IMG/VR virus record: IMGVR_UViG_3300025009_000056
Length of the DNA stretch: 64,000 bases
Strand: one strand, 5' to 3'
DNA from: a virus
Taxonomy: Duplodnaviria > Heunggongvirae > Uroviricota > Caudoviricetes
The position numbers were made by a program, and so were the translations under genes. Below are positions 7,901-54,743 of this stretch, in pieces. Under the pieces are notes generated by a model, which saw only the letters and a program-made list of their open reading frames with translations, searched no databases and was not told the origin of the DNA. Position 1 is the first letter of the stretch; the number at the start of each line of letters is the position of its first letter.

Positions 7901-10900
7901 TTTTTCCGGTATATTAGAACCATCCTTGATTTCAGTAATACTACTCGTAGAACTCGTTATACTGTTTGAGAACACTGACACTACCTCTTGCTTGAATTTA
8001 TCAAAAGAACCTTTAATATAAGGCGATAGCTTGTAATATAAATCCTTGTCTCTATTTTTCAACTCGTCGTATGAATTCAATTTGTTTATATCGGATATTA
8101 CCTTACTCGCTCTGTCTATATAATTATTCAAAGATGCAACACGTGTGTCAATCCAAGCATCCTGCTCCTCTTTAGTGAAGGCTGAATAACCAACTGCTTT
8201 TTTTCTATCTAAAGCAGCTGAATCAGACCTGTTTTTACAAAAGTTTTCAAATCTAACACCAAAAATACCTTTTAACTTCTCAGCCCTGCGCCAATCATCT
8301 GAAGACCAGCTGCGCTTTTTTTCCTGCTCCGACAAGTCACCTACAAACAGGTCTTTTCTATCAAGAAAACCCCTCAATGCATCATCTGTCTGTTCGTAAG
8401 AGTAACAATTATTAAGCACCTCTATCAACTTTTCAATTCCATTCACGTACACCTTTCTCGCATCAGCGCTATCAAATGGTCTCGCCGCCATTGCATCCCT
8501 ACATTTCACCTTCAGATAAGTTGCTCCGGATGAATAGCCTTTTTCCTTTTCGTCGGCGGGTACATATTCCTGCCACACTCTCGATTTTTCAACCATCTTA
8601 TAAGCTATCACACTATCCTCTTCCACCTCGTCGAGATTCTGTGATGACACAAGATTATAATTAACTTTATATTTCTTCGTGTATTTTACAATTTCTGTAT
8701 CCTTAAATTCTTTGCTTTCCTGAGATTTTATAAGACGCTGTTTTACCACCTCTCCTATCTTTTCCCGACCACCATCAACACCACCGCCGTCCTCAAATCT
8801 AATATCCGGATTATTCGGGTCAAAGTCACCATTGTTTTCAGTTGCGGACTTTATTTGGCTTGGTAAAAAAACGACAATTTCATCTCCATCCAATGATTGC
8901 ACTATTGCATCATGCCCTTTATTTTTAATAGCGTCGGTAATAGATTCGTACCTCGTCATATATCCCTCCGCATGATAATTCGCTTTAATACCCTCGTATT
9001 TTTCTATTGCCTCAATAATTGCATACAACTTAGCCTCGTTTTCAGGCAAACTCACATGCCATCTACCAAAATCATCAGTATCATCCCACTCGTGTATTTT
9101 TCCCTCACTATCTGTAAATGAAGCCTTTTTTGTTTTTGATTTCGCATAAGCAAATAAAATACTTGGCTTACCGCCATCGTAAGCGGTTTCAATAATAACG
9201 TCTTCATCATATTTTTTAAACAACTCCGGAAGTACACTTATGCCAACATAAGATATTTCGTATGAGTTATCAACTCTATTGTACTTACCTCGCTTCTCTA
9301 AAACTATCTCATTTGATATTTCCGGAAATTTATCAGCAATATTTTTCAGGAACACTACTGGCTCGTGATACATTGAAAATGTTCTAATTCCATTATATTC
9401 CGAAAGCGAACTCATGTCAAATGGGTTGTCGGTTTTCACATAAGCACTAATTATCCTATTTCCATAATAACCAGCCTCACCCCTTGCCGCCGATTGCCAA
9501 CTTGGGTCTGAGTTGAATGTAAAATAAAACCCTCTTCCGTAAAAGCCTCTATCATTAGCACTACCTATTTCGCTCGCACTAAACTGATGAAAATCACTAT
9601 TGGTTCCATGATAAACTACTATTGGGCGTAACTGCGCATCTATCATTTTACTATCACCAAACCATCGCCAGAAATTTTCAATCCCCGCAATTGTTTCATG
9701 AATTAATTTCCCAAGATTATTACGTGTCGGTCTTTCAACGCCATCAACCATAATAGTTTCCGGAATAACAGCGCCACCATCCTCAAACTGACTTTCTGCA
9801 TTCTGCATTTTTGACAATTCGGCAATCTTTTTCTCCTGTCTTTCTATCCTTTTCTTTAAATCATATGTTGAAGCAGCATAAGTTCTATCAAACCCAAGCT
9901 CTTTTAACCTATTCCGCATCCACGAACTATAAACACACTCCTTTCGTTCCTCGCTTATTTCTAAAACAGGCTCCATTTGCCTATTTTCATAATTAAACTC
10001 TTCTGATTCTTGCAAACACCACGCATCGCCCATTTTCCAAGTAATACGCCCTATATGTTCATCATCACCTCTTTCAATTTCCGGCTTTGGCATTTTATCA
10101 ACCAACGCTTTCGCCTCATCGAGTTTTCTATTTTCTTCCTCAATAATACTCAGTTGTAATTTTTGTTTAGCTAATGTTTTCAGCGCGGTAACGAGATTTG
10201 GGAAACTCTTCATCTGCTTTTTATCCAGATACCCTAATAAAACAGGAACAGACTCAGAGCTTGCGGTAATAATTTCACCATCTGCTTTTCTGATGTAAAA
10301 CTTATGCACAATCTGCCGTCCGGTTTCATCGCTTAATTCAGCATTACTCCAATCAGATTTTCTATAAGGAACCAATTCACCCTCCCAGTTGGGTCTCTCA
10401 TCCCACTCATAAGACCACAAGTAAGAAGTAAGCTGATTTCCATTTCGACCAATAATAGGCGGCTCGAATACTGTTTCCGAATAAGGCTTAAACCTACTAC
10501 TCGAACCAACAACCTTACTGAATTTCGCTGGCTTCAGTTCTCCACCATCCTCAAATTCAGGAATATCAACACTCAAATCATCGAGAACAATATCGTTAAT
10601 AATATCGAAATTGAATTCAGTGAATAAATCATCCTCCTGCATAAAATACGATTGCACACCTTTATCAACAGAACTCAATTCGTATGAGTATGACTTTATA
10701 ATTCCATCCACCCACTCAAAAACAAACCTTTTAAGCGTAACCGTATACAATTTACTATTGAAATCAAACAATACCGTTCGCGGGTCATTTTCCGGAAGCG
10801 TTATATCAAAATCGCTTATCATGAAAATGTTTTTCACATGCTCGACAACCTCTCTACGGAAATAATCTATTACAATATCCTCCGGAGTTGGTGCATCCGA

Positions 10901-14100: not shown

Positions 14101-17100
14101 TATTTTCGACACCAATATTTTGCTCCTCACTGATAACTGGAACAACTACCTCCTCTGTCAAAACAGGCTCAAATCTATTCGTGACATTTGCATTTGGATA
14201 TTTTTCAAGAATCCACTTTTTCAACTCACTCTCGATTGCACTAATTCCCGATTTTGCAACAGGAACTTTTTCTCCAACGATTGCGGAAATAACCTCTTGT
14301 CTTTTCTGTCTATTATGGTCTCCGGATAAATTATATATCAAATCCCCTATAGCCCGATAGTCTTTTCCGGCTTTCACGACCTGCTCGTCAACCATTTTCA
14401 CAAACGGATGTGGATACTCACCTTTCACAACATCACCATTCTCAAATTTATCTTTATATAGAATGGCTACATTTTTCAGAAAACCAAATCCATATTTCGA
14501 CTTAATGTAACTAATATCATCATCTATTACGTTGTCGTCAACCTGCGCAACATAAGAACCTCTGAAAATAATAAAATATTCACCGGATTTACTATGCTTA
14601 ACAATGCTGAAATACTCCTGAATTTCCAAATCCTCGAAATCTGATGAATTCCACCAATCACCCGTTATTTTATGAATCTGTGTTGAAAGCGGATTTCTAT
14701 CGGAGATAACAATTACTGTTGCGCTTTTCTGCACATCACCACCATTTTCAAATAATTCACCATTACTATAGTCTCTGCTTAACACTCCTATATTTCTGTC
14801 ATGCTCCGCCTCAAAAACAACATCTTCTACATATTGCGAACCCCATGAGGCTCCCAACTCCCAGTTACCCTCATCATCCATAAAATAATGACGGCCAAAA
14901 TAATAAACAGGGTTTTGTTTTTTCTCGAAAACAACTTTATTATTGTTTTCAAAATATATCGTTCTTTCTTTTTCCACATCCTCCCTCGTGAATGGAGTAT
15001 TAATATCTCTCACAGCACCACCGTCTTCGAACATGGTTATTCCGGCCATCTGTACCTGATTCTGGTCAAATAAACTCATACTGTTATCGTTTTCAATTGT
15101 ATCCTGAATAATATTACCCTCATTATTAAGCGTTTTGTCTATATTTTCACCAACAACATCACCTTTGTCAAATTTCCAGTATTCAGTCTTCAAGCTAATT
15201 CCAACTTTATTTTTGTAAATTGGATTTTTATCCACACGGAATTTATCGACATAATCAGAGCTATTAAAATCACTGATAAACAAATCAGCTTTTTCCGCTG
15301 ATTTCATATCAAGCACCCTTCTTGCTACGGAATTCTCTTGCATTTCTTTAAAAAGATTTCCCCAAAATGTATTAATCTTGCTTTTCCTATCATCCAACCT
15401 TCCACCATCCTCAAACGGCAAATCCAACGTGTTATCCCTAAACATTTGTTTGAGCTTATTCTTTTTCGCGTTCCAATTACTTATATCATATTCATCCCAC
15501 TCGCTCACTGGCTTGCTATAAAGGTAATTCGTCTCATCACCAACCGCTCCAAGAAGTCTATAAACACTATCCTGTGTTGGCACAACTCCACCATCTTCCA
15601 GAATTTCGCCGTTTGGTTTTATTGCGCCTTTCATTTTCTCATCAATTAAATTATTTTCCTTACTCGATTCAATCAAACAATCACAATCAATAGCTTTTCC
15701 GCCGCCATCCTGATTTATTTTCGACAACTCCTCGCAATGCATCTGTGCTGCTTTTCTGGTAATAACAATCTCAGCCTGCTCGATTTCTATCGGCTGTCCG
15801 GTTTCTTTCACCACCATTGGGATGCCGTCATTTGTATGCAGCTCTCCATTATACGCAGCGCCACCATCGGCTATACTGTTATCGTCCTGAAGTGTAATAT
15901 TGTTTACTGAATCGCCCTTTTCCATTTTGTTTGATTTATTGTTTACTAAATTCATTTCTGTGTCATTATTTTTTTCACCATCATTAATATCTACAACCGA
16001 GTCCTCTTTAATATCAAATATTACACTACCATAAGAACCGGAATCCGGATTTGCATCACCCTCTTTTACCGGAATATTTCTAACATCAATCCCCTCATAT
16101 CCCAACGCTTTCAGAATAATAGTTGCCGATGTATCCACGATATTTGTTCCGTCAGACGGCTGCTCTAATCTATTTTCCGCTTTCACTGAATTTTCAAGCA
16201 GCGATTTTATTATTTCATCTTTTTTCGCTGTCAACTCATTCTTAAATTCGGAAATAAAGTCACTGAATAAAGAGTATTCTTTTAATTTCGAAATCATTGA
16301 ATCCCAATCGGAATAAACCCTATCTGCGCTGACAATATTAGGAGTCTGACTTAATGCGTTTTTAATCCAGAAATAATCAGAACTGTTTGACGGCCTTAGC
16401 AAATTATACTGAGAGAAATCAACTGCTTTTACACTTTTCTCTCCGGTTAATCTATTTCCGCGTTGCATTGCTGGCTCAATGGATGAATAGAAATAATATC
16501 CGGTGAAAGGAACTGATGTGCCGCGCAGTGTACTACCAATACCCTCAGCCTTTTTATATAAATCACCACCGTGATAACCCAAGTTGTCAACAGAACCACC
16601 GTCCTCAAATTTTATATATTTGACAACGGATTTAAACTTATCGTATTCCCTTTGTTTAATCGGCTCGCTTATTCCAAAATTTTCTTTTAGGTATTCAGAC
16701 ATTTCACCAATGCCCATGTTTTTAATATCGTCAATAACCGTTTTGTATTCAGAATCACTCAACTCCCTAAAAACGATTACCGGAATAGTCTTTGCGCCTA
16801 AACTCTTTGCGGCCAGCGCCCGATGTCTTCCCTCTTGTGATTTACCGCCAATGGTTAAATATGGTATTTCAAATAAATCACCAGCTTTCATTAATTCAGC
16901 AATTTCTATTACATTATCATCGGAAACATACTGCATATTTTCACCAGTCGACAAGAAAAATCCTTTTGAAACATCATACATGTATTCATCCGGAGTCATT
17001 TCAACTATTTTTGCAGTCTTTGACTTTTCCGTAATAGCATAAAGTGGCATATCAAATTCGACATGCTTTCTTTTCGCATCATCGTAATCCCAGTTTATTT

Positions 17101-20100
17101 CAGTTGAAACATTGCCACCGTTCTCAAATCTAATATCCGGATTTTCGGCATTGAAAGTGGTGTTCGTTCCGTCTGCGAGTTTTATTTGGGTTGAATCAAA
17201 ACAACTTATAATAGCACCTCTATCCCAATGGTTGAATTTTATTCCATCGTAATTATTCCCTCTTAATATTTCAGAAACATCATCATTAAAATAATCGTTG
17301 TTTATTGATTTAACCTCACTTATCACATCACTTGGACTTTCACCCTCAACTATGAATAGTTTTCTTATATTTAAAAACACAGGTAAAATCGTTTTCCCAT
17401 ATTCTTTAAATTCATCTTTACTTATGGAAAAATAGAACCCTCTTCCCAACCACCCTATCAATTGCTTTTGCTTGTCAAACTCATATATTTTTGCTTTAGC
17501 CCTATTGTAAACCACCAATGGCTCTCCATTGGAATCTACAACTTTACTCGCGTTTTCTGGGTCGTTAATCCAGTCACCAAACCACGAAAGAAACTCTGGT
17601 GTGCGGACTAATTCATATTGCTCCGGAGTCAGGTTACTCGTTTTCCCGTTAGGTGCAACCATGCCACCATCCTCCATTTCAGCAACAGGGCAACCAACAA
17701 CAGCTTTTATACCATCGGTAAATTCAATAGTTCTAAAACTTTCCTCATTAAATTCACACGGTTCCACCTGACGAAATCTGTATGTGTTTTCTTTTTCGTC
17801 AACATCGGTTTTATATCCGTGTTTTTTCAACCACGCCTTAGCTTTCTTCAGTGTAAAATTGTCTTTTGAAAACAAAAGAGTTTGCACCTTTGTGCCAACC
17901 GGACATTCTACAAAACCACCCTGTTCAAATTTATCTTTGAGTGTGTTTTTAATTTCAGCTTCAGACGGAGCGGCAATAACTTTTCCGTCCGGTAATCTCA
18001 AATTCTGAAACCTGCTCGGATATTGATAAAAAGGGTTTCCATATTTCGAGAAATTAATAATTATCTGATTTGATAATGTAAACGAAATATCGGAGCCGTA
18101 GTTAAAATAAATGTCTTGGTCTTTTCTTTTTCCGGAGCTTTCAACATTCAATAAATCATCATTTGCACCGAGGAGTAAATCGGATAATTTGTCATACATC
18201 TTATTCTTGTAAGATGAAATATCCATCGTTGATTTTTCATCAGATATTTTCTCGATTAACTCATCAGTGTTTTCAAGCTGATATATATTGTGCGCACTAT
18301 TTTCATCCTTAACGAATGTAAACGGCCTGAGAGCATATCTGATTTCTCTATTTCTCTCGAAATTGTTTTTATCATTAACATTCAATGGGTAAAGAATGTC
18401 AACATTATTCGTACCCTTTCCAACAATCTCTTTCTGAAATTCAGAAATAATATTGTTATACATTCTTTTGTACGATTCTTTTATTTCTAAACGGAAAGCC
18501 TCAGCGACCTCATCTATTACGCGCTTTATTTTCGGGTTTATCTTTCCGGTTACTTCCTGAATTCGCTTTTCCTCTGTTACGCTTTTAGGCTCGCGTTTTA
18601 CAATGCGGCCTTTTATCAGCTTTAATTTCTCGGCTACCTTACGCCTTAATTCCGTATTTCTATCGGGAGTGTTATAATAGTCGTATATTTCCCTCTCGTA
18701 CTTATTCATTGCCTGAATATCCGACTTTTTTAATTTACCGCCCCAATGCAATTCATTTAGTATTGTGCTATTTCCATTGACGGGAGTTCCCTCTTTAAAT
18801 AGGAAGTCATGCAGGTTTTTATATTCCAGATTGTCACGGTGAATAATATCCCAAGCAAAGTCTGAAAAACCTTTTTTCACAACGAGACTGACTTTTTCGC
18901 TGAAAGCACGTTTCATTCTATCGTAATCAGCCTTAATAAGCGTGTCTTTTTCTACGTCAAAGTCTAGAAATTCATTTATTGCATTAACATACTCTTTTGG
19001 TGCTCGTTGTTGCATTGCTCCAATAACAACAGCCCTTTCGTCGGTGGAAATAACGCCACCGTCCTCAAATCTAATATCCGGATTTTCGGCATCAAAAGTT
19101 ACATTTGTTCCATCCGCGAGTTTTATTTGTTCCGGATAAAACGCCACGTATTGATTGTTTATCAATTCTTTTATCCCTCTTTCTCCGAATAGGTTAATCC
19201 AATAGTTTTTATCATCATCATTTAATGGCTCTATAAAATAACCATCATGGTTGTCTTTTATCAACTCATCCCTTAAGATTTCAGGACTCGTACTCGTCAT
19301 CGTCCATTGGCGAGCATTTACTGTTTTCGGGGTTTTTATAGACAAGAAACAATCAATTACCTTTGAACCTTTTTTCAACTCACTCTTTTCCGCCAAACTC
19401 CACTTATACCGCGTAAAATCCTCGGCTAAACTTTTATTATTTGTAAAATAAAAACCCATTTTACCCCAATCCGCACCAGTCTGCTTGGTTGCGTGTTTTA
19501 AAGAGAAAATAGTAAAATCTTTTACAGTTCCATGATAAACCACCAACGGCTCTCCATTGGAATCTACAACTTTACTCGCGTTTTGTGGGTCATTAATCCA
19601 ATCACCGAACCATGCTTTAAACTCGGGTGTACGGACTAATTCATATTGCTCCGGAGTCAGGTTGCTCGGTTTTCCATTGGGAGCCAGCAACACATCATCA
19701 TTCTTTTTACGCGAAATTTTAAAATCAACCAACGTGGGCTGTTTTCTTACAGGTCTCTTTTCTTTCGGCAAGTCATAATATTTCAATCCGAACTCCATCA
19801 GATTGGCATAAATAATTTCTTTTTGTTTCTGAAAATCCGACTCATTCTCATGTTCCGCTATCAACCCTTTTTCAATCGCATCGTAAATGACATTGGTTTT
19901 CATTTGCGGAATACCGTATTTTTTCGCAACCTCATCAATACCCATCTTGTCGGAAATGGAATATATCTTTTGTCTGAATTTAGCCAGATATTTTTCCGGA
20001 CTTTTTTTCACCACGATGCTTTTTCCAGAATCGCGTACAATATCTTTTTTACCCATAATGGATGCAACAACGCCACCGATAACACTGAGCGGAATAACAC

Positions 20101-20179
20101 TCTTTGATGAATCGACATTGATTGTATAGTTTTTCTTTCTCCCCTTTGGCTTACTATACGTGAATTTCAAACTACCCAT
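11129..20179 (-). CDS. Giant (~3016 aa) multidomain polyvalent-type effector protein: two tandem-related ART modules (second with His->Asn), ParB-like nuclease domain, coiled coils, many FEDGG motifs
   Basis: Uninterrupted 9.1-kb ORF; ORF track start 20257 is TTG (rc of caa) lying upstream of a predicted promoter; first ATG (MGSLKF...) at 20177..20179; motifs VVYHGTVKD, VVYNRAKAKIY, QEGRHRALAAKSLG. Confidence 0.75.
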   Translation of the reverse strand: MGSLKFTYSKPKGRKKNYTINVDSSKSVIPLSVIGGVVASIMGKKDIVRDSGKSIVVKKSPEKYLAKFRQKIYSISDKMGIDEVAKKYGIPQMKTNVIYDAIEKGLIAEHENESDFQKQKEIIYANLMEFGLKYYDLPKEKRPVRKQPTLVDFKISRKKNDDVLLAPNGKPSNLTPEQYELVRTPEFKAWFGDWINDPQNASKVVDSNGEPLVVYHGTVKDFTIFSLKHATKQTGADWGKMGFYFTNNKSLAEDFTRYKWSLAEKSELKKGSKVIDCFLSIKTPKTVNARQWTMTSTSPEILRDELIKDNHDGYFIEPLNDDDKNYWINLFGERGIKELINNQYVAFYPEQIKLADGTNVTFDAENPDIRFEDGGVISTDERAVVIGAMQQRAPKEYVNAINEFLDFDVEKDTLIKADYDRMKRAFSEKVSLVVKKGFSDFAWDIIHRDNLEYKNLHDFLFKEGTPVNGNSTILNELHWGGKLKKSDIQAMNKYEREIYDYYNTPDRNTELRRKVAEKLKLIKGRIVKREPKSVTEEKRIQEVTGKINPKIKRVIDEVAEAFRLEIKESYKRMYNNIISEFQKEIVGKGTNNVDILYPLNVNDKNNFERNREIRYALRPFTFVKDENSAHNIYQLENTDELIEKISDEKSTMDISSYKNKMYDKLSDLLLGANDDLLNVESSGKRKDQDIYFNYGSDISFTLSNQIIINFSKYGNPFYQYPSRFQNLRLPDGKVIAAPSEAEIKNTLKDKFEQGGFVECPVGTKVQTLLFSKDNFTLKKAKAWLKKHGYKTDVDEKENTYRFRQVEPCEFNEESFRTIEFTDGIKAVVGCPVAEMEDGGMVAPNGKTSNLTPEQYELVRTPEFLSWFGDWINDPENASKVVDSNGEPLVVYNRAKAKIYEFDKQKQLIGWLGRGFYFSISKDEFKEYGKTILPVFLNIRKLFIVEGESPSDVISEVKSINNDYFNDDVSEILRGNNYDGIKFNHWDRGAIISCFDSTQIKLADGTNTTFNAENPDIRFENGGNVSTEINWDYDDAKRKHVEFDMPLYAITEKSKTAKIVEMTPDEYMYDVSKGFFLSTGENMQYVSDDNVIEIAELMKAGDLFEIPYLTIGGKSQEGRHRALAAKSLGAKTIPVIVFRELSDSEYKTVIDDIKNMGIGEMSEYLKENFGISEPIKQREYDKFKSVVKYIKFEDGGSVDNLGYHGGDLYKKAEGIGSTLRGTSVPFTGYYFYSSIEPAMQRGNRLTGEKSVKAVDFSQYNLLRPSNSSDYFWIKNALSQTPNIVSADRVYSDWDSMISKLKEYSLFSDFISEFKNELTAKKDEIIKSLLENSVKAENRLEQPSDGTNIVDTSATIILKALGYEGIDVRNIPVKEGDANPDSGSYGSVIFDIKEDSVVDINDGEKNNDTEMNLVNNKSNKMEKGDSVNNITLQDDNSIADGGAAYNGELHTNDGIPMVVKETGQPIEIEQAEIVITRKAAQMHCEELSKINQDGGGKAIDCDCLIESSKENNLIDEKMKGAIKPNGEILEDGGVVPTQDSVYRLLGAVGDETNYLYSKPVSEWDEYDISNWNAKKNKLKQMFRDNTLDLPFEDGGRLDDRKSKINTFWGNLFKEMQENSVARRVLDMKSAEKADLFISDFNSSDYVDKFRVDKNPIYKNKVGISLKTEYWKFDKGDVVGENIDKTLNNEGNIIQDTIENDNSMSLFDQNQVQMAGITMFEDGGAVRDINTPFTREDVEKERTIYFENNNKVVFEKKQNPVYYFGRHYFMDDEGNWELGASWGSQYVEDVVFEAEHDRNIGVLSRDYSNGELFENGGDVQKSATVIVISDRNPLSTQIHKITGDWWNSSDFEDLEIQEYFSIVKHSKSGEYFIIFRGSYVAQVDDNVIDDDISYIKSKYGFGFLKNVAILYKDKFENGDVVKGEYPHPFVKMVDEQVVKAGKDYRAIGDLIYNLSGDHNRQKRQEVISAIVGEKVPVAKSGISAIESELKKWILEKYPNANVTNRFEPVLTEEVVVPVISEEQNIGVENNEIKDEQMNKNKDKEDSNPVGRYEFGMEYEEDFPTMDMLNTGAKASLSWGVGKLEKLTESLRDMNFHPTNKILIKAIKQYKDGNVSGAEESLKEFKIACLKEIAEFKQPVSDTGEEKPYLDPVYEAGILERFEKALSNYNETKDKKYFNVQHGDTSNTVVGTLAEFIIEVVIKSKQPEKLSVYYDLLEKAGLSKTMVKDDYMYNWITYAYDKTDETLFYEIFAESNLNLFEFIPEKFKKKSDVRPLSYKLDPSDKNLINIMDDFAATKDSVARDILKAIRFDEHGVSATNANVLAFINGKVSKKGNFCLTKDCIETYDIPDGGEIKSGNDSDKTRYPEYIGVLPQNNNNRNIINVNSLEIFANAMYKSGIVQKAGVAGVVIKIDELVVKVSSENLIKATTFMKRLGYDKIEISGSTNKRGLLFMPVGSAADARSLKNPFVLVMPLHIEGYDIPVEILDYPCFDCNDETVKVVNRESIESIDISPDGLVNTEIGKTKKKLQKDADVEKERLQKEITRAKDESREQIEAINKREAEKNKRAAEKKLKEDLVRQKAEELKAEKARKDKEEADRLAEEKRIADEKAELDEKERLLAEKNAARIIAQQEKAGKKMSAKQKELAEKKAEEMALLQLLSSESERQESELELLEVEMSDGEEMISNSGKAKPTQSEINDFIDYMSEFYGKQGLYAKDYNGGFTREQIAAAVDKYVKDKETNWGHGDSVDRELTRDKYLAPYSIDKKEAWEMTAAERWSAERKRAIQADGMAYVKKHMATLDEYKYGSHKKMIEQAIADGKPVPVEVLADYPDLVSKKEKGGKIESEKPFESAKEIEDYFGVSVNVYDEYTNEVELESPKASEITFGWSIDGQWIDGVSLKSIRLPKTRSLITASWISDKINKEKIYKDFSVIFKDILVKSGHSGSSINVYPTTYGIGVAVIFNPSGSNDKEQITNLLKQTGVSFTNEYSDAGYVYRYKISKSKENIDKIKEYLDKINN
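16700..16950 (-). other. ParB/sulfiredoxin-like nuclease domain within giant protein 2
   Basis: rc of 16801..16850 encodes GGKSQEGRHRALAAKSL (ParB N-domain GxxRxxA-type motif). Confidence 0.45.
17050..17600 (-). other. ART module B (paralogous duplicate, His replaced by Asn: VVYNRAKAKIY...GRGFYFSIS) ending in NPDIRFENGG
   Basis: rc of 17475..17520 encodes EPLVVYNRAKAKIYEF; >90% nt identity to module A over 17521..17650 vs 19541..19690. Confidence 0.5.
19000..19650 (-). other. ART module A (catalytic His intact: VVYHGT...GFYFTNN) ending in NPDIRFEDGG
   Basis: rc of ~19530..19550 encodes PLVVYHG; module begins ...TPEFKAWFGDW. Confidence 0.5.
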
Positions 20180-20204
20180 TATTTTCTTTTTTATTATAAG
20201 GAAT

Positions 20205-20245
20205 GTTGCAAAGATACGAAATAAAACAGCCCATGTCAAATTACG
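20205..20245 (-). promoter_or_regulatory. Putative Bacteroidetes-type promoter (-33 TTTG / -7 TATCTTTG) for giant protein 2
   Basis: rc of 20209..20216 = TATCTTTG; rc of 20237..20240 = TTTG, 20-nt spacing; ~29 nt upstream of ATG 20179. Confidence 0.5.
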
Positions 20246-20302
20246 TTTATTAATCAAACAGTAATTTTACACAGGCCGCTACTACACATTCGCTAAACGC
20301 AC

Positions 20303-36659: not shown

Positions 36660-37463
36660 TTATTTTATTTCTAAATTACTACACTTTGCACAAACACCAT
36701 TTAAGTGATTTGTCATTTGAAAACACTTCTCACAAAAGTCGAGTTCAAATTTAGGCTTTTGGTTAAAATCAAGAATCCGTTTTAGGTTCGTTTTTCTTTT
36801 TACCTCTGTAAATTCTTTCAGGCGCTCAATAAGCTCCAGTACTTTTTCTCTCGACGGCTCCGGTAAATGATTATTTCCGGAATCAGCTCCGATATTAATC
36901 GCTTTCGGCTTGCAGTCTTTTATCATTTGCACAAACTCATCCATATCAAAATCCATAATAGGCTCAATAGTCACCTCTTTTTCCGGACAGTCAATCAGAG
37001 AGAAATACACCGAGCGCTCTGTCGGCTTCGGAGAGTTAACCATGAATTCCGGATAATGCCTATTTGTTTCAAGCGTGGTGCAAAAAACATTATTTTTCAA
37101 ACCATCAAACTGACCATAGTATTCCAACATGCGCTTTGTGTTCTTTGTCTGGAAATAATATCTATTATTTGGATATTTTTCAACGTGTTTGATTATATTG
37201 GTTATAATTTCATCATGCACATTATCAGCAAACAGGTCGTTTTGTGAAACCATGAAAATCGTTTTATTTTCACCCCAATTCTTTAGCTGTTTAGCATCTA
37301 AAAAAGGCGCACCAGAATATTTTTTCGCTATATTCGGGTATCGGCTAAATCTTTTCGTACTACAATACGAACAATCGTGATAACACTTGCCACCAAGCGG
37401 GTTGCTTCGCACATCAACGAAGTCGTACATGTTGTCGTTTCCTTTTTTCTTACTCATTTTCAT
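36660..37463 (-). CDS. Putative radical-SAM-like protein (CX3CX2C motif near N-terminus; 267 aa)
   Basis: GGKCYHDCSYCSTKRF = CxxxCxxC [4Fe-4S]-binding-type motif; family not resolved. Confidence 0.35.
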   Translation of the reverse strand: MKMSKKKGNDNMYDFVDVRSNPLGGKCYHDCSYCSTKRFSRYPNIAKKYSGAPFLDAKQLKNWGENKTIFMVSQNDLFADNVHDEIITNIIKHVEKYPNNRYYFQTKNTKRMLEYYGQFDGLKNNVFCTTLETNRHYPEFMVNSPKPTERSVYFSLIDCPEKEVTIEPIMDFDMDEFVQMIKDCKPKAINIGADSGNNHLPEPSREKVLELIERLKEFTEVKRKTNLKRILDFNQKPKFELDFCEKCFQMTNHLNGVCAKCSNLEIK

Positions 37464-37978
37464 CCTATTTTAGTGATACAGGCGCTTTTCCATAGAGACA
37501 CGAATTTATCGCGTTTTTTATTTGCAATAATCCTCTCCTTATCCCTATCCATCACACCATCTTCGGAAACCATTATTTCAATCTTATTCCCGACCATCTT
37601 GATAACAAACCCCCATTTCCAATCACATATAGCCGTTCCGGTTCCTATCGCCTTTACGTTTTCTACCGCGACAACATTTTTCATCAATATTGTATGACCC
37701 TCGAATTCTACAAATTGTTCATCTGCGCAGTAGTCAATTTTTACGACAAAACTATCTCCACCGGAACATGTACAGCGGTCTATATTTCCGCCTCTTTCTT
37801 TTCCACAACGATTACAAATAAATCTTACTGATTTCGAGTCAGCCGAATTCAATTCACTCTGGTGAAAATTAACCATTGCGTCGATTACCCACTCCTTCAG
37901 GTAATCCATTTTTTCCATGTAGGCGAGTGTGTTTTCACTCATCTCATCCTCTAATATTACTTTTGCTCTGTTTCTCAT
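37460..37978 (-). CDS. Cys-containing hypothetical protein (~172 aa; ORF track start 38092 trimmed to Met at 37978)
   Basis: ICNRCGKERGGNIDRCTCSGGDSF; trimmed start removes ~100-nt overlap with macro gene. Confidence 0.4.
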   Translation of the reverse strand: MRNRAKVILEDEMSENTLAYMEKMDYLKEWVIDAMVNFHQSELNSADSKSVRFICNRCGKERGGNIDRCTCSGGDSFVVKIDYCADEQFVEFEGHTILMKNVVAVENVKAIGTGTAICDWKWGFVIKMVGNKIEIMVSEDGVMDRDKERIIANKKRDKFVSLWKSACITKIG

Positions 37979-37988
37979 TTTTGTTTTT

Positions 37989-38609
37989 TTAATATTGTAG
38001 GTTCCTGCATTCATCAGTATACAACAGTTGGTGTCTTTGCTGCGCCTCATCCCAATTTTTTGGAAAAGTATATTTTCCAAGCCAAACCTCACTAAATGCT
38101 TTTTTCATTTGTTTAGCGCACACATCGTAAGGAAGTTGACCAACACCAGTGCCAAGTCCACTAATTGTAACCGTATTAAACCGACTCTCACTTGTCAATA
38201 AATTAAATATAGCTTTCGATGCCAGATAAACATTGACTGTGTTTTTTAATATCATCGGAACACGCATGGTTGGTGCTGATATGCAAAAAGGTATTTGCTC
38301 AAAATCAGTTTCAATCAACTCAGCCTGTCCAACCAAAATTTCACCCAAATATTTTTCACGTATCCTTTTCTGAAGTTTATCCTGAATCTGCTTTCCTATT
38401 TTTCTCGTAATAAGCATATCTAATCCACCGTCCATGAATCCGAAAGAATTAGCCGGAGATACAACGCAATCAGTTTTCAAAGAAAAAAAATCCCCGCAAT
38501 AAATAGAAACATCATTACAGTCTTGGAATTGCAATTTCCATTGTTTACACATTTCTTTATTTCTATCTATTAGTTGGAATTTCATCAGGAGCAAATGTTT
38601 TATGTTCAT
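37989..38609 (-). CDS. Macro domain protein (ADP-ribose binding/ADP-ribosyl hydrolase-like)
   Basis: DVSIYCGDFFSLKTDCVVSPANSFGFMDGGLDMLI matches macro signature (..GDIt....DaIVNaAN..l..GGGvd.ai); start may be an internal Met (38552/38585). Confidence 0.6.
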   Translation of the reverse strand: MNIKHLLLMKFQLIDRNKEMCKQWKLQFQDCNDVSIYCGDFFSLKTDCVVSPANSFGFMDGGLDMLITRKIGKQIQDKLQKRIREKYLGEILVGQAELIETDFEQIPFCISAPTMRVPMILKNTVNVYLASKAIFNLLTSESRFNTVTISGLGTGVGQLPYDVCAKQMKKAFSEVWLGKYTFPKNWDEAQQRHQLLYTDECRNLQY

Positions 38610-38889
38610 TTAGATTCACCAACACACCAATCTGATAAAGATATAGTTCATAAACAGGCACACCACCATGTTCTAACCATTGGCAATATTCATCTTTAAA
38701 CCCTCTCAACTTGTATTCTTCTGGCTGAATATGTTTTTCAGCATTATTAAATTGTTCTGGTTTGTATCCTTTACAATATGTATACTCATCACCAATACTA
38801 TCTGATTCGGCTATTTGTTTTGTAATTAAGTACAGGAAATTTAATTCATTTCTGCCTTTACAAATTGTAATTATTTCGTCTATTTTCAT
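38563..38889 (-). CDS. Hypothetical protein (108 aa)
   Basis: ORF tiling. Confidence 0.45.
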   Translation of the reverse strand: MKIDEIITICKGRNELNFLYLITKQIAESDSIGDEYTYCKGYKPEQFNNAEKHIQPEEYKLRGFKDEYCQWLEHGGVPVYELYLYQIGVLVNLNEHKTFAPDEIPTNR

Positions 38890-38903
38890 TTTTGTCTTTT
38901 TAT

Positions 38904-39149
38904 TTAGTTTGTTCCGGCAACAATCTCTCTAACACCATCACTTATGTCGTTAAAAGATTTAAAAAACAAACTTATTTCATTCATCGTTTTCCAAAGTTTA
39001 TCTTTTCTCTCATCGGACATATAATCAAGCATATCCTCTCCAATTACGAAACGTCCCAGTTCGTCATAAACAGGCTTTTCTATCAACTCACATAATTCAA
39101 TTTGAAGCGATTTGAGTTTAGCTGCGTCATATTCACTCATTTTAGGCAT
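38904..39149 (-). CDS. Hypothetical protein (81 aa)
   Basis: ORF tiling. Confidence 0.45.
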   Translation of the reverse strand: MPKMSEYDAAKLKSLQIELCELIEKPVYDELGRFVIGEDMLDYMSDERKDKLWKTMNEISLFFKSFNDISDGVREIVAGTN

Positions 39150-39154
39150 AGTGT

Positions 39155-39466
39155 TTATTTTTCAAGTTTTAATTTAATTGACCATTTTTCAGGAATCCAA
39201 AGTCTTATTTTTTCAACCACAATAGCCGGATATAAATGCCATTTCTTTTTGCAAACTATAACATACCCATCGTCGTGATAGCCAAATCCATAAAATAAGC
39301 CATTAGTGTAATGATGCCAATCCTCGGGATGATTTTTATAATAAATCCCAAAACAGGAAAATCCAACTATTTCATCAATCCGGTTTTCAAGCTTACCTTT
39401 TTTGGGGATAATATTTACCCAAACTTTGTCGCCGGAGCGTAGATTAAAATCTTTAAATATACTCAT
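39155..39466 (-). CDS. Hypothetical protein (103 aa)
   Basis: ORF tiling. Confidence 0.45.
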   Translation of the reverse strand: MSIFKDFNLRSGDKVWVNIIPKKGKLENRIDEIVGFSCFGIYYKNHPEDWHHYTNGLFYGFGYHDDGYVIVCKKKWHLYPAIVVEKIRLWIPEKWSIKLKLEK

Positions 39467-39482
39467 TTTGTTTACAAATTTA

Positions 39483-39920
39483 TTATCGGTTTATTATTTG
39501 ATGCCATGCTTCAGTCGGAACGTGCTTTCTCTTTTCGATTTCCTCATGACATTTGTCGACGTAAGCAATTTTCTCTTTTATTCGCGGGTCATTAAGGTCA
39601 ACTTTTTCTTGAGGCAACTTTTTACCACCTAAAACAGAATCCGCTTTTTTAGATACCATACTCATCTCTTTCCAAGCAAGATTATCACAAATACCACTCA
39701 AGCATCTACGTTCAATTTTCTCACGATTTTCAATACACCAAATAAGGAAACGGAGCTGGTCAATATCGGTTTCCATGCTTCTCCTGAATGCTTCAGAGTC
39801 TCTATCTAAACCACCATAAACACTATGCAATTCATCAAAACAATGTGATGTTTTTATATCTCGTTTTGATTCAGCAAGCCTGTTTTTAAGCATCCGTTTA
39901 ACTGTTATTCTTTTTCCCAT
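39483..39920 (-). CDS. Hypothetical protein (145 aa)
   Basis: ORF tiling. Confidence 0.45.
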   Translation of the reverse strand: MGKRITVKRMLKNRLAESKRDIKTSHCFDELHSVYGGLDRDSEAFRRSMETDIDQLRFLIWCIENREKIERRCLSGICDNLAWKEMSMVSKKADSVLGGKKLPQEKVDLNDPRIKEKIAYVDKCHEEIEKRKHVPTEAWHQIINR

Positions 39921-39959
39921 GTAACAAATTTGTTAGTTACTTCTTAGTTACTTTCTTAG

Positions 39960-40478
39960 TTACTTATCACCCAAAGATAGCTCCAATGTAAGTTCGGTAA
40001 GTATTTTACCTAAAAGATTTTCACCCCAATTTTTAATATTTTGAATAGCCTCGCATTCAAAAAAACCTATTCCCCATATTGTATCATCAGGAGATGCCTC
40101 TACAATTTGAAAGCCTTTGTATTTTAATAATTGCTTTTTCAATTGCGGATTTTGATTAAACTTTTCCCTGAGTCCTTTTTTCACAAGTTCGTATTTAACC
40201 AAATCCCATTTCGCTAGATTAAAATTGCGCACCTCACGGCCTAATTCTTTTTGCCGTCTCGCAGATTGTGCCTGAAGTATTTTATTTGCAGTTTCTTGGT
40301 CGTTAAATGTCATTGCTTTCTGATGCATCATATACTGTTCTCCACAATTATACTTAACGCCATCAACCTCAAAATGAGATTCATGCCAATTGCTGAAAAC
40401 ACCATTCCAAAAGAACATGTATTTTACGCCGTTAAATGTTTTATTCATAAAATAATATTTAATGTATGTAAAATACAC
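39960..40478 (-). CDS. NADAR (YbiA-like, DUF1768) domain protein
   Basis: YMFFWNGVFSNWHESHF...NCGEQYMMHQKAMTFNDQETANKIL...ASPDDTIWGIGF - NADAR family hallmarks (FSNF-like, EQY..QK, SP.D.IWGiG). Confidence 0.6.
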   Translation of the reverse strand: MYFTYIKYYFMNKTFNGVKYMFFWNGVFSNWHESHFEVDGVKYNCGEQYMMHQKAMTFNDQETANKILQAQSARRQKELGREVRNFNLAKWDLVKYELVKKGLREKFNQNPQLKKQLLKYKGFQIVEASPDDTIWGIGFFECEAIQNIKNWGENLLGKILTELTLELSLGDK

Positions 40479-40510
40479 CCCAACCCAAAAATTGAATCGG
40501 GGTGTATTTA

Positions 40511-41992
40511 TTAAAGCTGAGAATTAATTCGCTGTCTGATTTCACTTAAACTTGTCTCTGTGACCAGTTTTCCATCCTCAAAAACAGTTTCCAGCTCCCC
40601 GTAATTTTCTACCTCTCTTGTCACTTGGTCTTCAAGATGTAATTTGTCGACATCGGAATACACATAAAGCAGACCCTTTGCTGATTTTTTAAATCCGGAA
40701 TCAGTTTTTGGATTTTTGAAAATATCCCGCGCTTCACCATTGACCTGCCCCCATGTAGCTTTCATCGCAAATCCAAATGTGTCGCGCGTAACATACTCGT
40801 AAGTGTACGAGCCTATTCCAAAAACAAGATTACTGGCAGAAAATCCTTTCACCTCAAGTTTTTCGAGTATCAGTTTTTGTCTTTCAAGCGTTATGGAATC
40901 GCCGTAAATAAGTCCGACTTTTGGATGTAAAACCTTATACCCCTTTTTGTTAATTTCTCCGCCAAAAATATCCCAAAGGATTTCATATGCACCTTTGCGC
41001 TGGCTTTCCGTAATAAGTGATTCAGGTGTTTCATCATCTCCGCAGATAATTTTCACAGGGTCTCCGCTGTCGGGACGAATAACAACTCTGCCATCTCTGG
41101 CGAGAATTTCATTTTTCAGCGCGGGAAGATATTCTGTCATAACTTTCCAAAAATCCCATGTGTCAGAAACAATACTAACGATACCATTGGGATATAACTC
41201 TGTAATAAGTCTTTTAAATGTATTAATTTCGCCCTCTTTTTCACCAAGGCTCATAACGCTATGCTCGGTAGCGGGAACACTACCACCAATAAGCTCTTTG
41301 TCGGAATCAGCGTTGTAATATTTCTCCAGAAAATCAATCGCTGGGATGGTATCGGTTCCGGTAAAAGACAATAAGTGTGCAGCACCACTCAGTAAAGCAT
41401 CCTCGTTTCCACTCATGCCCCTAAAGCTGAAATCATGCCCCTGCCACTGAATAAAAGATTTGTCATATCCTGTTTTCTCAGCATATTCCTCAAGTCTTTT
41501 GCGATATTGAAAAGCTGTGGTGGCACTCGTGATAGGCTTCCACATAATATTACTCATCAATGTCTCAAAATAATTAGTAAGCCAGAAAAACTTAGGCATG
41601 GTGTTCACAATGGTGAAAACCGGAACACCAATCGGAACCAAACGTCCCTCACTGATAGCCTTTATCCGAATAGGCAAATATCCTAAATCATGGAGTTCGG
41701 CAATATGCTCACACGGGATAGCATCAACACCAAGATAATTATCCATCCGGCGTTTATACTCGCGCAAAACCTGTTCTTTCGGCTTTTCAAAAAACCCCTT
41801 ATTCCACCTTTCAATCAGGTATTCTTTTACAAAATACTGAAGCCCGAAAAACACAACCTCATCTATTCCGGCAATACGGCTCTGTCTGGGTGTAAAGTTT
41901 GAGTAAACATACTCTGTTCCGGCGGGATACTGTCTGCGGTGGTCAGCTTTATACCCGTCGATTAGGCACATTGGATTGATGTCTGTAATCAT
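40511..41992 (-). CDS. Nicotinamide phosphoribosyltransferase-like protein (NAMPT/NadV family; candidate Namat of NARP1)
   Basis: 493 aa; N-terminal DGYKADHRRQYP (cf. NAMPT DSYK.THY.QYP); size and family fit. Confidence 0.7.
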   Translation of the reverse strand: MITDINPMCLIDGYKADHRRQYPAGTEYVYSNFTPRQSRIAGIDEVVFFGLQYFVKEYLIERWNKGFFEKPKEQVLREYKRRMDNYLGVDAIPCEHIAELHDLGYLPIRIKAISEGRLVPIGVPVFTIVNTMPKFFWLTNYFETLMSNIMWKPITSATTAFQYRKRLEEYAEKTGYDKSFIQWQGHDFSFRGMSGNEDALLSGAAHLLSFTGTDTIPAIDFLEKYYNADSDKELIGGSVPATEHSVMSLGEKEGEINTFKRLITELYPNGIVSIVSDTWDFWKVMTEYLPALKNEILARDGRVVIRPDSGDPVKIICGDDETPESLITESQRKGAYEILWDIFGGEINKKGYKVLHPKVGLIYGDSITLERQKLILEKLEVKGFSASNLVFGIGSYTYEYVTRDTFGFAMKATWGQVNGEARDIFKNPKTDSGFKKSAKGLLYVYSDVDKLHLEDQVTREVENYGELETVFEDGKLVTETSLSEIRQRINSQL

Positions 41993-42009
41993 TTTTTAGT
42001 TTTTAGTTG

Positions 42010-42864
42010 TTACAATTCTATTTTAAACTGCGTTACAAGTTCGTTCTTTACGTCTTTGAATGAGTTGGTGGTGTAAATCTTTTTGAAATACTGAGCCAAT
42101 TCATCAAAGCCTTTCGAGAATATCCCATGAGAAACGAAAAGGTAAATGTCTCCGGCATTTTTCTTCTTTAATTCTTTTGCGATACCTACAAAAGTTCCAC
42201 CACCATCACAAATATCGTCAACAATCATGCATGGCGCACCACCTAAATCATCGCAAAAAACCTCAAATCCGCTCAATTTTCCATTGCTTACATCTCGTTT
42301 TTTATCACACTTAACCAGTGATTTGAAATATGCAGCCTTTTCAAAAAGCTCGTTTGATTTTTTATTCGCTCCAGAATCAGGAGAAACTAATACTATCTTA
42401 TTGATAACACCGCGAATATCAGCTATTGCTCTTTCAACATAATTTTCGTTTGAAATATTTACGCAGCCATCAATAAGGGCTGGTGAAATACCAGAATGAG
42501 CATCAAGTACGAAAACGTTATCGAATTTCAATGAGTTAATCAGGTTAGCAAAAACCTTTAATGAAAACGATTCACCATTTACACACACCCTATCCTGTCT
42601 CGCGTATGGAATATATGGCATAACCAAATCGAATTTCTTAACACCCTTTCTTTTCAGTGCGTCATGTGCTAACAGAACCTCCATTAATTTATCACTATCG
42701 GTTATTCGATGAGTGATGACAACGGATTCAATTTCGTCATAATTAATATTGTTATTCAATTTGATATGAACCTCACCGCCATTAAACCGCATATTTTCAA
42801 ATTCGATTTCTGGCCGAAAGGCTACAGGGACAAACATGCTGTCTAAATTAATAGCTCTTTTCAT
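42010..42864 (-). CDS. Ribose-phosphate pyrophosphokinase-like protein (Prs family; candidate ADP-ribose pyrophosphokinase Adps of NARP1)
   Basis: MPYIPYARQDRV (Prs signature), LDAHSG, VSPDSGA, MIVDDICDGGGT (PRPP-binding). Confidence 0.75.
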   Translation of the reverse strand: MKRAINLDSMFVPVAFRPEIEFENMRFNGGEVHIKLNNNINYDEIESVVITHRITDSDKLMEVLLAHDALKRKGVKKFDLVMPYIPYARQDRVCVNGESFSLKVFANLINSLKFDNVFVLDAHSGISPALIDGCVNISNENYVERAIADIRGVINKIVLVSPDSGANKKSNELFEKAAYFKSLVKCDKKRDVSNGKLSGFEVFCDDLGGAPCMIVDDICDGGGTFVGIAKELKKKNAGDIYLFVSHGIFSKGFDELAQYFKKIYTTNSFKDVKNELVTQFKIEL

Positions 42865-45816: not shown

Positions 45817-46299
45817 TTAGATTTGTTCCTCTCTTATTATCCTCCGGATTTCACTGAGCGCGATGGGTGCTTTTCTAACATCCGCGCATACATTAAAATA
45901 CCGTTTGTCGTTTATTGTTTTTTCATGAACGTGTCCATGAATATTAACCTTACCATGCAACTCGTCTGGATGTATCGGGAAATGTGTAAACCAAAACTCA
46001 TCGTGTTTTTTACACCCCATCACCTTATTCACGCACCTCAATAACTCTGGAACATGCTGTGGAAAATCATGATTCCCGAGAATTACATTTATTATTCCTT
46101 TCAACCTTTTTAGCGTGGTGTAATCACCTTTTTCCATCGTAATATCACCAAAAAGATAAACAGTGTCTTTCTTTGTTATCAGGTTGTTCCAACTGGAGAC
46201 GATTAACTCATCCATCTCCTCTGCGCAACTGAAACCCCTCGCTATTGCGATGTTATTATGTCCAAAATGCGGGTCTGAAAAAGCGTATATCTGACTCAT
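45817..46299 (-). CDS. Calcineurin-like metallophosphoesterase
   Basis: SDPHFGH, FGDITMEKG, LGNHDF, HGHVH phosphoesterase motifs. Confidence 0.7.
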   Translation of the reverse strand: MSQIYAFSDPHFGHNNIAIARGFSCAEEMDELIVSSWNNLITKKDTVYLFGDITMEKGDYTTLKRLKGIINVILGNHDFPQHVPELLRCVNKVMGCKKHDEFWFTHFPIHPDELHGKVNIHGHVHEKTINDKRYFNVCADVRKAPIALSEIRRIIREEQI

Positions 46300-51747: not shown

Positions 51748-51815
51748 GCCTGCTGACAGGACTCGAACCCGCAAAATAAGTAGCTAACTTGTGTTATCAA
51801 TTTCACCACAGCAGA
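51748..51815 (-). pseudogene. Truncated tRNA-like element (68 nt: 7-bp acceptor stem, D-arm, canonical T-arm GCGGGTTCGAGTCCTGT, but anticodon/variable region ~5-6 nt too short)
   Basis: rc: TCTGCTGTGGTGAAATTGATAACACAAGTTAGCTACTTATTTTGCGGGTTCGAGTCCTGTCAGCAGGC; acceptor pairs 1-7/66-72; anticodon arm folds only as 4-bp stem with 5-nt loop. Confidence 0.3.
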
Positions 51816-53210: not shown

Positions 53211-53708
53211 TTATTTTCTATTTAAAATTTCCACAACTTTCTCAGCACATATTCTCGTTAATCCATAACCGATGTCAATGCAATCCGGATGGTCGCTATT
53301 GCCGGATGTTTGTACGAAATTATCCATCTGGCTCGGCAGCATATCGGTGCAATCGTCGATTATGCAATAATTCTCCACCTCATCCTTGTGTTCATTCAGG
53401 TATTGTTGAATTTCAAACCCCCTATCAACCTCGTCGTAGTATTCACACACTCCGGTTTCAACCACATCAACCTCATATGGTGTAACATTAATCACTTCTC
53501 CGGCTAATCCGCGATGTTTCCACATTGCTTGCATAACATCCAGCCCATCCGCTTTCCATGTTGAACTAATAACAATTTTGGCTCCGGTTTGCTCGATAAC
53601 ATACCGCAAATTATCCTCAAAATGCCTATGAAACAAACCGCCGAATTCATCACGGTCTACCGGAATCACATTCAATACGCCGTCAATGTCTAAAAATATT
53701 ATTTTCAT
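53211..53708 (-). CDS. HAD-superfamily phosphatase (possibly deoxyribonucleotidase-like)
   Basis: MKIIFLDIDGVLN (DxDx[TV] motif I), ...VISSTWK (motif II-like). Confidence 0.55.
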   Translation of the reverse strand: MKIIFLDIDGVLNVIPVDRDEFGGLFHRHFEDNLRYVIEQTGAKIVISSTWKADGLDVMQAMWKHRGLAGEVINVTPYEVDVVETGVCEYYDEVDRGFEIQQYLNEHKDEVENYCIIDDCTDMLPSQMDNFVQTSGNSDHPDCIDIGYGLTRICAEKVVEILNRK

Positions 53709-54649: not shown

Positions 54650-54668
54650 GATTTCATTTTTTAATTTG

Positions 54669-54743
54669 TGGTTCCGGAGGGACTTGAACCCCCGACCCTC
54701 TGCTTATGAGGCAGACGCTCTATACCAACTGAGCTACGGAACC
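54669..54743 (-). tRNA. tRNA-Met (anticodon CAU; elongator-type; could be tRNA-Ile2 if lysidinylated)
   Basis: rc: GGTTCCGTAGCTCAGTTGGTATAGAGCGTCTGCCTCATAAGCAGAGGGTCGGGGGTTCAAGTCCCTCCGGAACCA; full cloverleaf, anticodon loop CTCATAA. Confidence 0.85.

Follow-up and report, generated by a model that had tools for sequence, protein, structure and literature searches.

The 64-kb window analysed here, meaning the whole 64,000-nucleotide stretch taken from the groundwater-metagenome phage contig IMGVR_UViG_3300025009_000056, carries two adjoining genes for an ADP-ribose (ADPR) diphosphokinase of the Prs family (Adps) and a nicotinamide ADPR-transferase of the NAMPT family (Namat). With high confidence this pair can be assigned to NARP1, a phage pathway for the reconstitution of nicotinamide adenine dinucleotide (NAD+), the enzymatic activities being those expected from family membership. 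A NADAR gene directly downstream of Namat and, further on, a stand-alone macro-domain gene follow on the same strand. The best explanation of this arrangement, which we regard as probable though not secure, is the NARP1 core of a large groundwater phage, with NADAR as a likely feeder and the macro protein in a possible role like that of the phosphatase Adpp. Depletion of NAD+ is among the commonest antiviral strategies of bacteria, and its reconstitution by phages is a recent discovery. A first-pass annotation had seen at positions 36660-42864 an island of five families, namely radical-SAM-like, macro, NADAR, NAMPT and Prs; all five assignments were borne out by Pfam at the positions given for them, and PHROGs and NCBIfam concur with the domain assignments. 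The four genes of main concern are:

42010..42864, minus strand: Adps, ADP-ribose diphosphokinase, Prs family (Pfam, PHROG 619, TIGR01251)
40511..41992, minus strand: Namat, nicotinamide ADP-ribose transferase, NAMPT family (Pfam NAPRTase 1.5e-39, NAMPT_N 6e-12)
39960..40448, minus strand: NADAR protein, YbiA-type, predicted ADP-ribosyl N-glycosidase (Pfam NADAR 2.9e-45)
37989..38585, minus strand: stand-alone macro-domain protein, Ymx7/Macro_2 type (Pfam Macro 1.4e-10, Macro_2 8e-08)

The likely true starts are at 40448 for NADAR (ATG, 162 aa, with an alternative GTG at 40478) and at 38585 for the macro protein (198 aa), as judged from where homologous proteins begin and from how the genes are called on identical contigs. 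The window has a GC content of about 37% and a coding density of 93%. Proteins identical to its own are encoded by contigs as long as 195,945 bp, so the genome of this uncultivated phage has a size of at least 196 kb. A megablast search with the region 36-44 kb found no match among 50,697 phage records, and searches of IMG/VR for close relatives, seeded with either the macro or the radical-SAM-like protein, found none.

The Adps-Namat pair

NARP1 consists of a Prs-family ADPR diphosphokinase (Adps) adjoining a NAMPT-family nicotinamide ADPR-transferase (Namat) (Osterman et al., bioRxiv 10.1101/2024.02.11.579819). According to the NARP1 literature, the pathway occurs in 4.3% of sequenced phages, Namat stands beside 97% of the Adps-clade genes, the Adps-linked Namat proteins form a separate clade, and no phage carries both NARP1 and NARP2; Nmnat is the hallmark of NARP2, and NARP3 is a PnuC/NadR pair. 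During infection, host immune NADases would cleave NAD+ into ADPR and nicotinamide, Adps would convert ADPR and ATP into ADPR-pyrophosphate, and Namat would join the latter with nicotinamide to restore NAD+. The chemistry of both phage steps is established for the families and is predicted from sequence for the two proteins of the window.

In the window, Adps lies upstream of Namat on the same strand with a gap of 17 nt. What distinguishes Namat from a NAMPT dependent on phosphoribosyl pyrophosphate (PRPP) is a selectivity clamp formed by the loop of Arg40 and a helix of the pattern GSX-phi-X-phi-X-phi-TRD with aromatic X (PMC12774641). The corresponding helix of the window Namat, GSYTYEYVTRD, fits this signature, and the clamp residues R40 (R39 here), F392 (Y here), Y396, T398, R399 and D400 are conserved. 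The protein shows 58% identity to the crystallised SPbetaL1 Namat, in which all 20 NAD+-contact residues have their counterparts, 18 of them identical and two replaced conservatively (A362S and F392Y). It also scores far closer to the characterised Namat (612 bits, E 8e-183, against the SPbetaL1 chains 9w5x/9w5w; 491 bits against 9ke8) than to human and Xanthomonas NAMPT (only 235-239 bits).

Adps reveals the Pfam domains Pribosyltran_N (3.8e-15), Pribosyl_synth and Pribosyltran, matches PHROG 619 at 1.3e-83 and reaches 145.5 bits with TIGR01251, for which the cut-off is 113. Its scores would place it apart from cellular Prs, with 281 bits for PHROG 619 versus 84 bits for the top-scoring cellular Prs of the PDB; its best Prs matches are phage families, and homologues occur in 1578 phage records. 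The window protein has the motif DDICDGG[G/R]TF (aa 214-224) in common with 17 NARP1-linked Adps proteins, while E. coli Prs has DDMIDTGGT. This difference in the ribose-5-phosphate loop, seen in 17 Adps, is a candidate sequence discriminator between Adps and Prs.

The pair is assigned to NARP1 because the clamp motif, the NAD+-contact residues, the bit scores and the adjacent Prs-family gene all agree with it; the proposal that the two genes form an NAD+-regenerating pathway thus stands with every NARP1 feature that could be checked here. Neither Nmnat nor Nudix domains (CTP_transf_like, Nudix) were found in the other 80 ORFs (open reading frames) of the 64-kb window, which is part of a genome no smaller than 196 kb. 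Readings as NARP2 or NARP3 were rejected, since the window shows no Nmnat or Nudix gene and the PnuC/NadR pair is absent. In common with described NARP1 members, Adps is followed directly by a co-directional Namat with conserved contact and clamp residues, and no Nmnat was found nearby; unlike them, the pair comes from a groundwater phage that is uncultivated and at least 196 kb in size, and its Adps reaches only 27-44% identity with the homologues listed for cultured phages. Taken alone, the window is one more, rather divergent, environmental case of NARP1.

NADAR as a companion of NARP1

The NADAR protein is well supported as a family member, with 146.9 bits for TIGR02464 (cut-off 73.7), and its best matches in the PDB are 8bau, a "NADAR domain-containing protein", and E. 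coli YbiA. Two motifs, EQYMMHQKA with Glu37 and Lys44 (numbering of the 162-aa protein) and VEAS, are invariant across 35 viral NADARs. As the first-pass annotation had suggested comparing the protein with known active sites, it can be said that the catalytic Glu and Lys are present, so that the enzyme is predicted to be catalytically intact. The residue of the last strand serves for classification and is Glu in the YbiA family, Asp in the DarG1/BC4488 family and His in phage gp30.3/AdfN (PMC11125620); in the window it is Glu, within VEAS, which places the protein in the YbiA family. Compared with AdfN and DarG1 (PMC11257639, PMC11543638, PMC11125620), it shares the NADAR fold and the catalytic pair (E37/K44 here, E36/K43 in AdfN), but it differs in having Glu instead of the His of T4 gp30.3/AdfN or the Asp of DarG1 in the last strand, and in being located in a NARP1 operon context and not in the T4 early region or a DarT operon. 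An assignment to the AdfN/DarG1-type anti-DarT1 NADARs was rejected for the same last-strand Glu and a Phage_Y01A match that stayed below threshold.

The phage literature offers two precedents for enzymes that supply NARP1. In NARP1-AP, the Poa1p-like macro phosphatase Adpp turns ADPR-1''-phosphate, the product of the RES-domain NADase aRES, into ADPR for NARP1, and a locus is counted as NARP1-AP when a macro protein (PF14519, PF01661 or PF20016) lies within two genes of NARP1 (bioRxiv 10.64898/2026.01.28.702374). In mycobacteriophage DyoEdafos, RyDEP is encoded beside NARP1 (bioRxiv 10.64898/2026.05.28.727677); like the arrangement proposed here, this is a glycosidase next to NARP1 that makes linear ADPR for NAD+ synthesis, but RyDEP has a RyR domain and cuts an O-glycosidic ribose-ribose bond, whereas the window protein has the NADAR fold, whose chemistry is N-glycosidic and whose coupling to NARP1 is hypothetical. 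Such accessories reveal which non-canonical NAD+ breakdown products are made by hosts.

For the conservation of the genes, IMG/VR was sampled in three ways, and the loci (labelled L with a number) were scored with hidden Markov models (HMMs) built from alignments of this analysis:

Closest Namat relatives, 41 loci: Adps 38, Adpp-type macro 2, NADAR 0, window-type macro 0
Profile-seeded Namat, 80 loci: Adps 72, Adpp-type macro 13 (16%), NADAR 1-2, window-type macro 0
NADAR-seeded with Namat within 10 kb, 26 of 45 loci: Adps 21, Adpp-type macro 22, NADAR 26, window-type macro 0

Since Adps was present in 72/80 and 38/41 of the Namat-seeded loci, the adjacency of Adps and Namat represents a conserved operon, and the frequency of Adpp in the profile-seeded sample agrees with the published 15%. 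The 26 NADAR-seeded loci with Namat comprise 21 distinct architectures, and where Adps, NADAR and Namat occur together, NADAR stands between the other two in 19 of 21 loci. Typical is a compact Adps-Adpp-NADAR-Namat operon (L062:8160-12073, L064:8410-12061, L071:1872-5545 and 19 further IMG/VR loci), while L113 independently shows the order of the window, Adps-Namat-NADAR. Accordingly, NADAR accompanies NARP1 rarely but recurs as a genuine partner of it. Other families found between Adps and Namat in the NADAR-containing loci L055-L092 are DUF1937/DUF4406/DUF7768 (6), Thg1 (4), nucleoside 2-deoxyribosyltransferase-like proteins (2), one Nudix and one cytidylyltransferase-like protein.

The initial view that a combination of macro, NADAR and NARP1 genes is not a described arrangement proved too strong. 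NARP1 itself, its combination with a macro phosphatase (NARP1-AP) and neighbourhoods of NADAR with NadV have already been published, and the trio is recurrent in IMG/VR (22/26), there with the canonical Adpp macro protein and not with that of the window. NADAR was noted in phage neighbourhoods with NadV and NadM in 2022 by Iyer, Burroughs, Aravind and co-workers (PMC9503650); their survey of viral NAD+-ADPr systems likewise describes macro and NADAR proteins co-occurring in large phages and predicts them to process soluble ADPr derivatives, but it predates NARP1, treats NadV as a PRPP-dependent NAMPT and does not define an Adps-Adpp-NADAR-Namat operon. For this four-gene form, no description was found in the searchable literature, where the sole paper with both "NADAR" and "NARP1" has NADAR only as AdfN. 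New are therefore a divergent environmental NARP1 member, the embedding of NADAR in NARP1(-AP) operons of many uncultivated phages, and a candidate non-orthologous macro partner.

The main lead from these data is NADAR as a probable accessory enzyme of NARP1, judged from its sequence and genomic position. Based on the precedents of Adpp and RyDEP beside NARP1, NADAR, and possibly the macro protein, can be viewed as feeders. NADAR would most likely act as an N-glycosidase that frees ADPR from N-linked adducts and passes it to NARP1; candidate substrates are guanine-ADP-ribose on DNA, produced by DarT1-type toxins, or another N-linked product derived from NAD+. If NADAR is indeed such an accessory, a further tactic of the host, and the answer of the phage to it, would be indicated by the substrate of the enzyme. 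More tentatively, and with the odds rather against it in our estimation, NADAR might represent a third class of NARP1 feeder after Adpp and RyDEP, in which case both the Adps-Adpp-NADAR-Namat operons and the window would be multi-input NAD+ recycling modules. Candidates for the N-adduct would then be the guanine-ADPr that DarT1-type toxins place on phage DNA, or an immune product or signal that is soluble, N-linked and derived from NAD+; this would imply still-unrecognised host defences that lock ADPR as N-linked adducts.

The macro protein and competing readings

The window macro protein belongs to a family of stand-alone proteins of about 198 aa with 5998 members in phages and bacteria, of which the best-scoring 120 are 59-77% identical to it. 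Its model shows with confidence the fold of the yeast Ymx7-type ADP-ribose-1''-phosphatase, and the best structural match is an ADP-ribose-1''-monophosphatase. The structural comparison with DarG that had been recommended placed DarG second or third, behind the Ymx7 enzyme. We consider the protein a possible ADP-ribose-1''-phosphate phosphatase or ADP-ribosyl hydrolase. By analogy with Adpp, it may convert ADPR-1''-phosphate released by aRES-type RES NADases into ADPR, and a link to NARP1 with such a phosphatase role acquired via non-orthologous displacement is plausible at the level of the fold. If a Ymx7-type macro protein can substitute for Adpp, phages would possess NARP1-AP-like capacity that is missed by Adpp-based searches.

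Like NARP1-AP, the window has a macro protein of PF01661/PF14519 in the same co-directional stretch as NARP1, and one whose top structural match is an ADP-ribose-1''-monophosphatase; it differs in that this protein is Ymx7/Macro_2-like while Adpp is Poa1p-like, in that Adpp lies inside the operon or within two genes, and in that close homologues of the window protein elsewhere are not linked to NARP1. Thus, the Pfam part of the NARP1-AP definition applies to it and the two-gene distance does not. An assignment as Adpp orthologue was rejected (BLASTP E 0.56, hhalign probability 0.1%, no match to the Adpp HMM); a homologue of Adpp itself was recovered from Vibrio phage Achelous, in the order Adps-"phosphatase"-Namat, together with 13 from IMG/VR. 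The window protein was also rejected as an AdfM, its match in phage PhiPA3 being gene 271 and not the published AdfM gp108. A rough estimate puts the chance of one random gene among about 300 phage genes lying within six genes of the trio at about 5%, which is suggestive only.

Several observations weigh against the proposal of a NARP1 core with feeders. All 93 tiling ORFs (at least 50 aa) of the window are on the minus strand, so the co-direction of the block, correctly noted at first, is uninformative and was rejected as operon evidence. Scans for promoters and terminators between 35.5 and 46.5 kb gave counts equal to those of shuffled controls and, in a wholly co-directional window, define no operon boundaries. 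The NADARs tested so far act on guanine-ADP-ribose in DNA, with no soluble ADPR-adduct substrate known (PMC11125620, PMC11257639), and NADAR is rare in NARP1 loci overall (0/41 and 1-2/80 of the Namat-seeded loci). The two closest relatives of the window Namat, L009 (80%) and L010 (76%), have no NADAR, macro or radical-SAM gene within 10 kb, and the whole "island" is consequently lineage-specific; the five families of the first-pass annotation do not form a conserved unit. In the cultured phages Kayvirus A5W, phAPEC8, Bacillus WH1, Vibrio D479 and Serratia BF, NADAR sits away from NARP1, so that it clearly also works independently of this pathway. As to the macro protein, it is the sixth gene downstream of Namat at a distance of 1.9 kb and thus outside the two-gene range of NARP1-AP, apart from the fold it has no homology to Adpp, homologues with 60-70% identity were located in unrelated, non-NARP1 neighbourhoods on 4/4 contigs examined, and the HMM of the window type matched 0/166 NARP1/NADAR loci.

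A DNA search with the Adpp-NADAR segment of L064 for cultured phages with NADAR inside NARP1 returned NADAR fragments only. In the T4-like jumbo phages Vibrio D479 (L183) and Serratia BF (L184), NADAR was observed near genes for polynucleotide kinase and RNA ligase, a context consistent with a separate, RNA-repair-associated role.

Much of this would also be expected if only Adps and Namat formed a unit and the two other proteins were independent erasers, NADAR an AdfN-like antagonist of DarT1 and the macro protein an AdfM-like antagonist of DarT2 or of ADP-ribosyltransferases (ARTs), brought close merely by the tendency of phages to gather such counter-defence genes in accessory regions. All NADAR types tested remove ADP-ribose from guanine in DNA (PMC11125620, PMC11257639), and phage NADARs can neutralise DarTG1. 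Phage macro proteins are described as neutralising DarTG2, the catalytic Asn/Lys pair of T. aquaticus DarG being N22/K80, and the rank of DarG among the structural matches fits such a role. The many non-NARP1 contexts of NADAR and of the window macro family, together with the nearest Namat relatives devoid of both genes, fit it as well. Clustering hardly explains, however, why NADAR is inserted between Adps and Namat in nearly all loci holding the three genes and why tight four-gene operons such as that of L064 exist, and the YbiA-type Glu of the window NADAR is neither the Asp of DarG1 nor the His of T4 AdfN. We therefore treat independent erasers as a serious but rather unlikely account of the locus.

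A second alternative starts from ART modules of the phage itself, which had correctly been recognised in giant proteins of the window:

19094..19564, minus strand: ART-PolyVal module (Pfam 1.1e-32, aa 232-388) in a 3042-aa polyvalent protein (11129-20257)
8822..9640, minus strand: ART-PolyVal module (Pfam 8.3e-15, aa 479-751) in a 3049-aa polyvalent protein (1925-11074)

The two proteins, adjacent and both about 3,040 aa long, have one module apiece, and that at 1925-11074 also displays LPD1 (3.5e-19) and a weak methyltransferase match. According to this alternative, the macro and NADAR proteins erase or limit the marks set by the injected ART-PolyVal proteins, and NARP1 rejoins the released ADPR with nicotinamide to replace the NAD+ consumed, so that the chemistry would close a cycle. 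Two such modules in the same window speak for it, as does L102:10001-13061, where a 70% identical homologue of the window macro protein and a small protein that matches ART-PolyVal weakly are separated by 2 kb, the sole macro-ART hint. The giants are, however, situated more than 16 kb from the block, and downstream of it in the direction of transcription, not upstream as had been assumed; ART-PolyVal was not among the top 25 Pfam families inside NARP1/NADAR operons, although no scan aimed at ART-PolyVal was made; and NARP1 is widespread in phages without reported dependence on phage ARTs. Of the idea that the phage both writes and erases ADP-ribose marks, the existence of the modules holds while the link is conjecture, and a self-directed cycle appears improbable to us.

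Least credible, and in our judgement very improbable, is ordinary nucleotide metabolism, in which a true PRPP synthetase and a true NAMPT yield nicotinamide mononucleotide for an Nmnat whose gene would lie beyond the window (a NARP2-like pathway, or salvage derived from the host): both proteins pass the generic Prs and NAMPT thresholds, only 64 kb of at least 196 kb were examined, and Namat keeps residual PRPP activity in vitro (PMC12774641), but the Namat-specific adenine clamp is complete, the bit scores favour Namat over NAMPT by 612 to about 235, the best Prs matches are phage families, no Nmnat or Nudix gene was found in the window, and the published clade structure and mutual exclusion of NARP1 and NARP2 argue for NARP1.

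Neighbouring genes

The NARP1 core with NADAR as probable accessory and the macro protein as possible partner does not extend to the remaining genes of the block:

38563..39920, minus strand: four small ORFs without family match (39483-39920, 39155-39466, 38904-39149, 38563-38889)
37460..38050, minus strand: Cys-rich ORF of about 196 aa without family match (gene call from identical contigs)
36660..37463, minus strand: radical-SAM-like DUF5131 ("gp37") protein (Pfam Radical_SAM 6e-10, DUF5131 4.5e-09)

The radical-SAM-like protein shows the motif C27-x3-C31-x2-C34 and scores 40 and 36.6 bits with PF04055 and PF07505, both over the cut-offs. Its family comprises 1882 homologues of about 226 aa, with source names such as DUF5131, "protein gp37" and "DNA repair photolyase"; the window protein is about 40 aa longer and has a C-terminal CxxC...CxxC tail. 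Genes related to NAD+ or ADPR were found in 0/3 contexts of its homologues, where the neighbours were RecT, DNA methylase or terminase, and no homologue occurred among the 41 loci of the closest Namat relatives. The claim that all five families act on NAD+ or ADPR is wrong with respect to Radical SAM/DUF5131, and we see no basis for including this gene in the NAD+/ADPR system.

Four ORFs do lie between NADAR and macro as described at first, but a fifth, the Cys-rich one, separates the macro and radical-SAM-like genes. The five unassigned ORFs gave no match in Pfam, PHROG or NCBIfam, neither tblastn nor blastp found homologues of them in about 170 related loci, and the four small ones are present only on near-identical contigs. 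The start of the radical-SAM-like gene overlaps the stop of the Cys-rich ORF by 4 nt, and this ORF also overlaps the 3' end of the macro gene; the former overlap suggests that the Cys-rich ORF and the radical-SAM-like gene are a translationally coupled pair, and the Cys-rich ORF probably stands outside the NAD+ system. The DUF5131 gene, the five small ORFs and the ART-PolyVal modules were excluded from the system, of which they are not demonstrably part.

Two phosphatase-like genes upstream of Adps have relatives near NARP1 in other phages. An HAD_SAK_2 phosphatase (53211-53708, minus strand, Pfam 7.8e-24) is encoded 10 kb upstream of Adps. Homologues 53-56% identical to it are located directly upstream of NADAR inside NARP1 operons (L078:9274-9768, L079:9501-9989), and 16 loci have homologues no more than 10 kb away from NARP1 or NADAR; the protein may be another NARP1-associated phosphatase. 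A small calcineurin-like metallophosphoesterase gene (45817-46299, minus strand) lies 3 kb upstream of Adps and has homologues in eight NARP1 loci, in one of which (L030:6799-7353) it is placed immediately upstream of Adps. The window further contains tRNA-Ala(AGC) at 51748-51815 and tRNA-Met(CAT) at 54668-54743, both on the minus strand.

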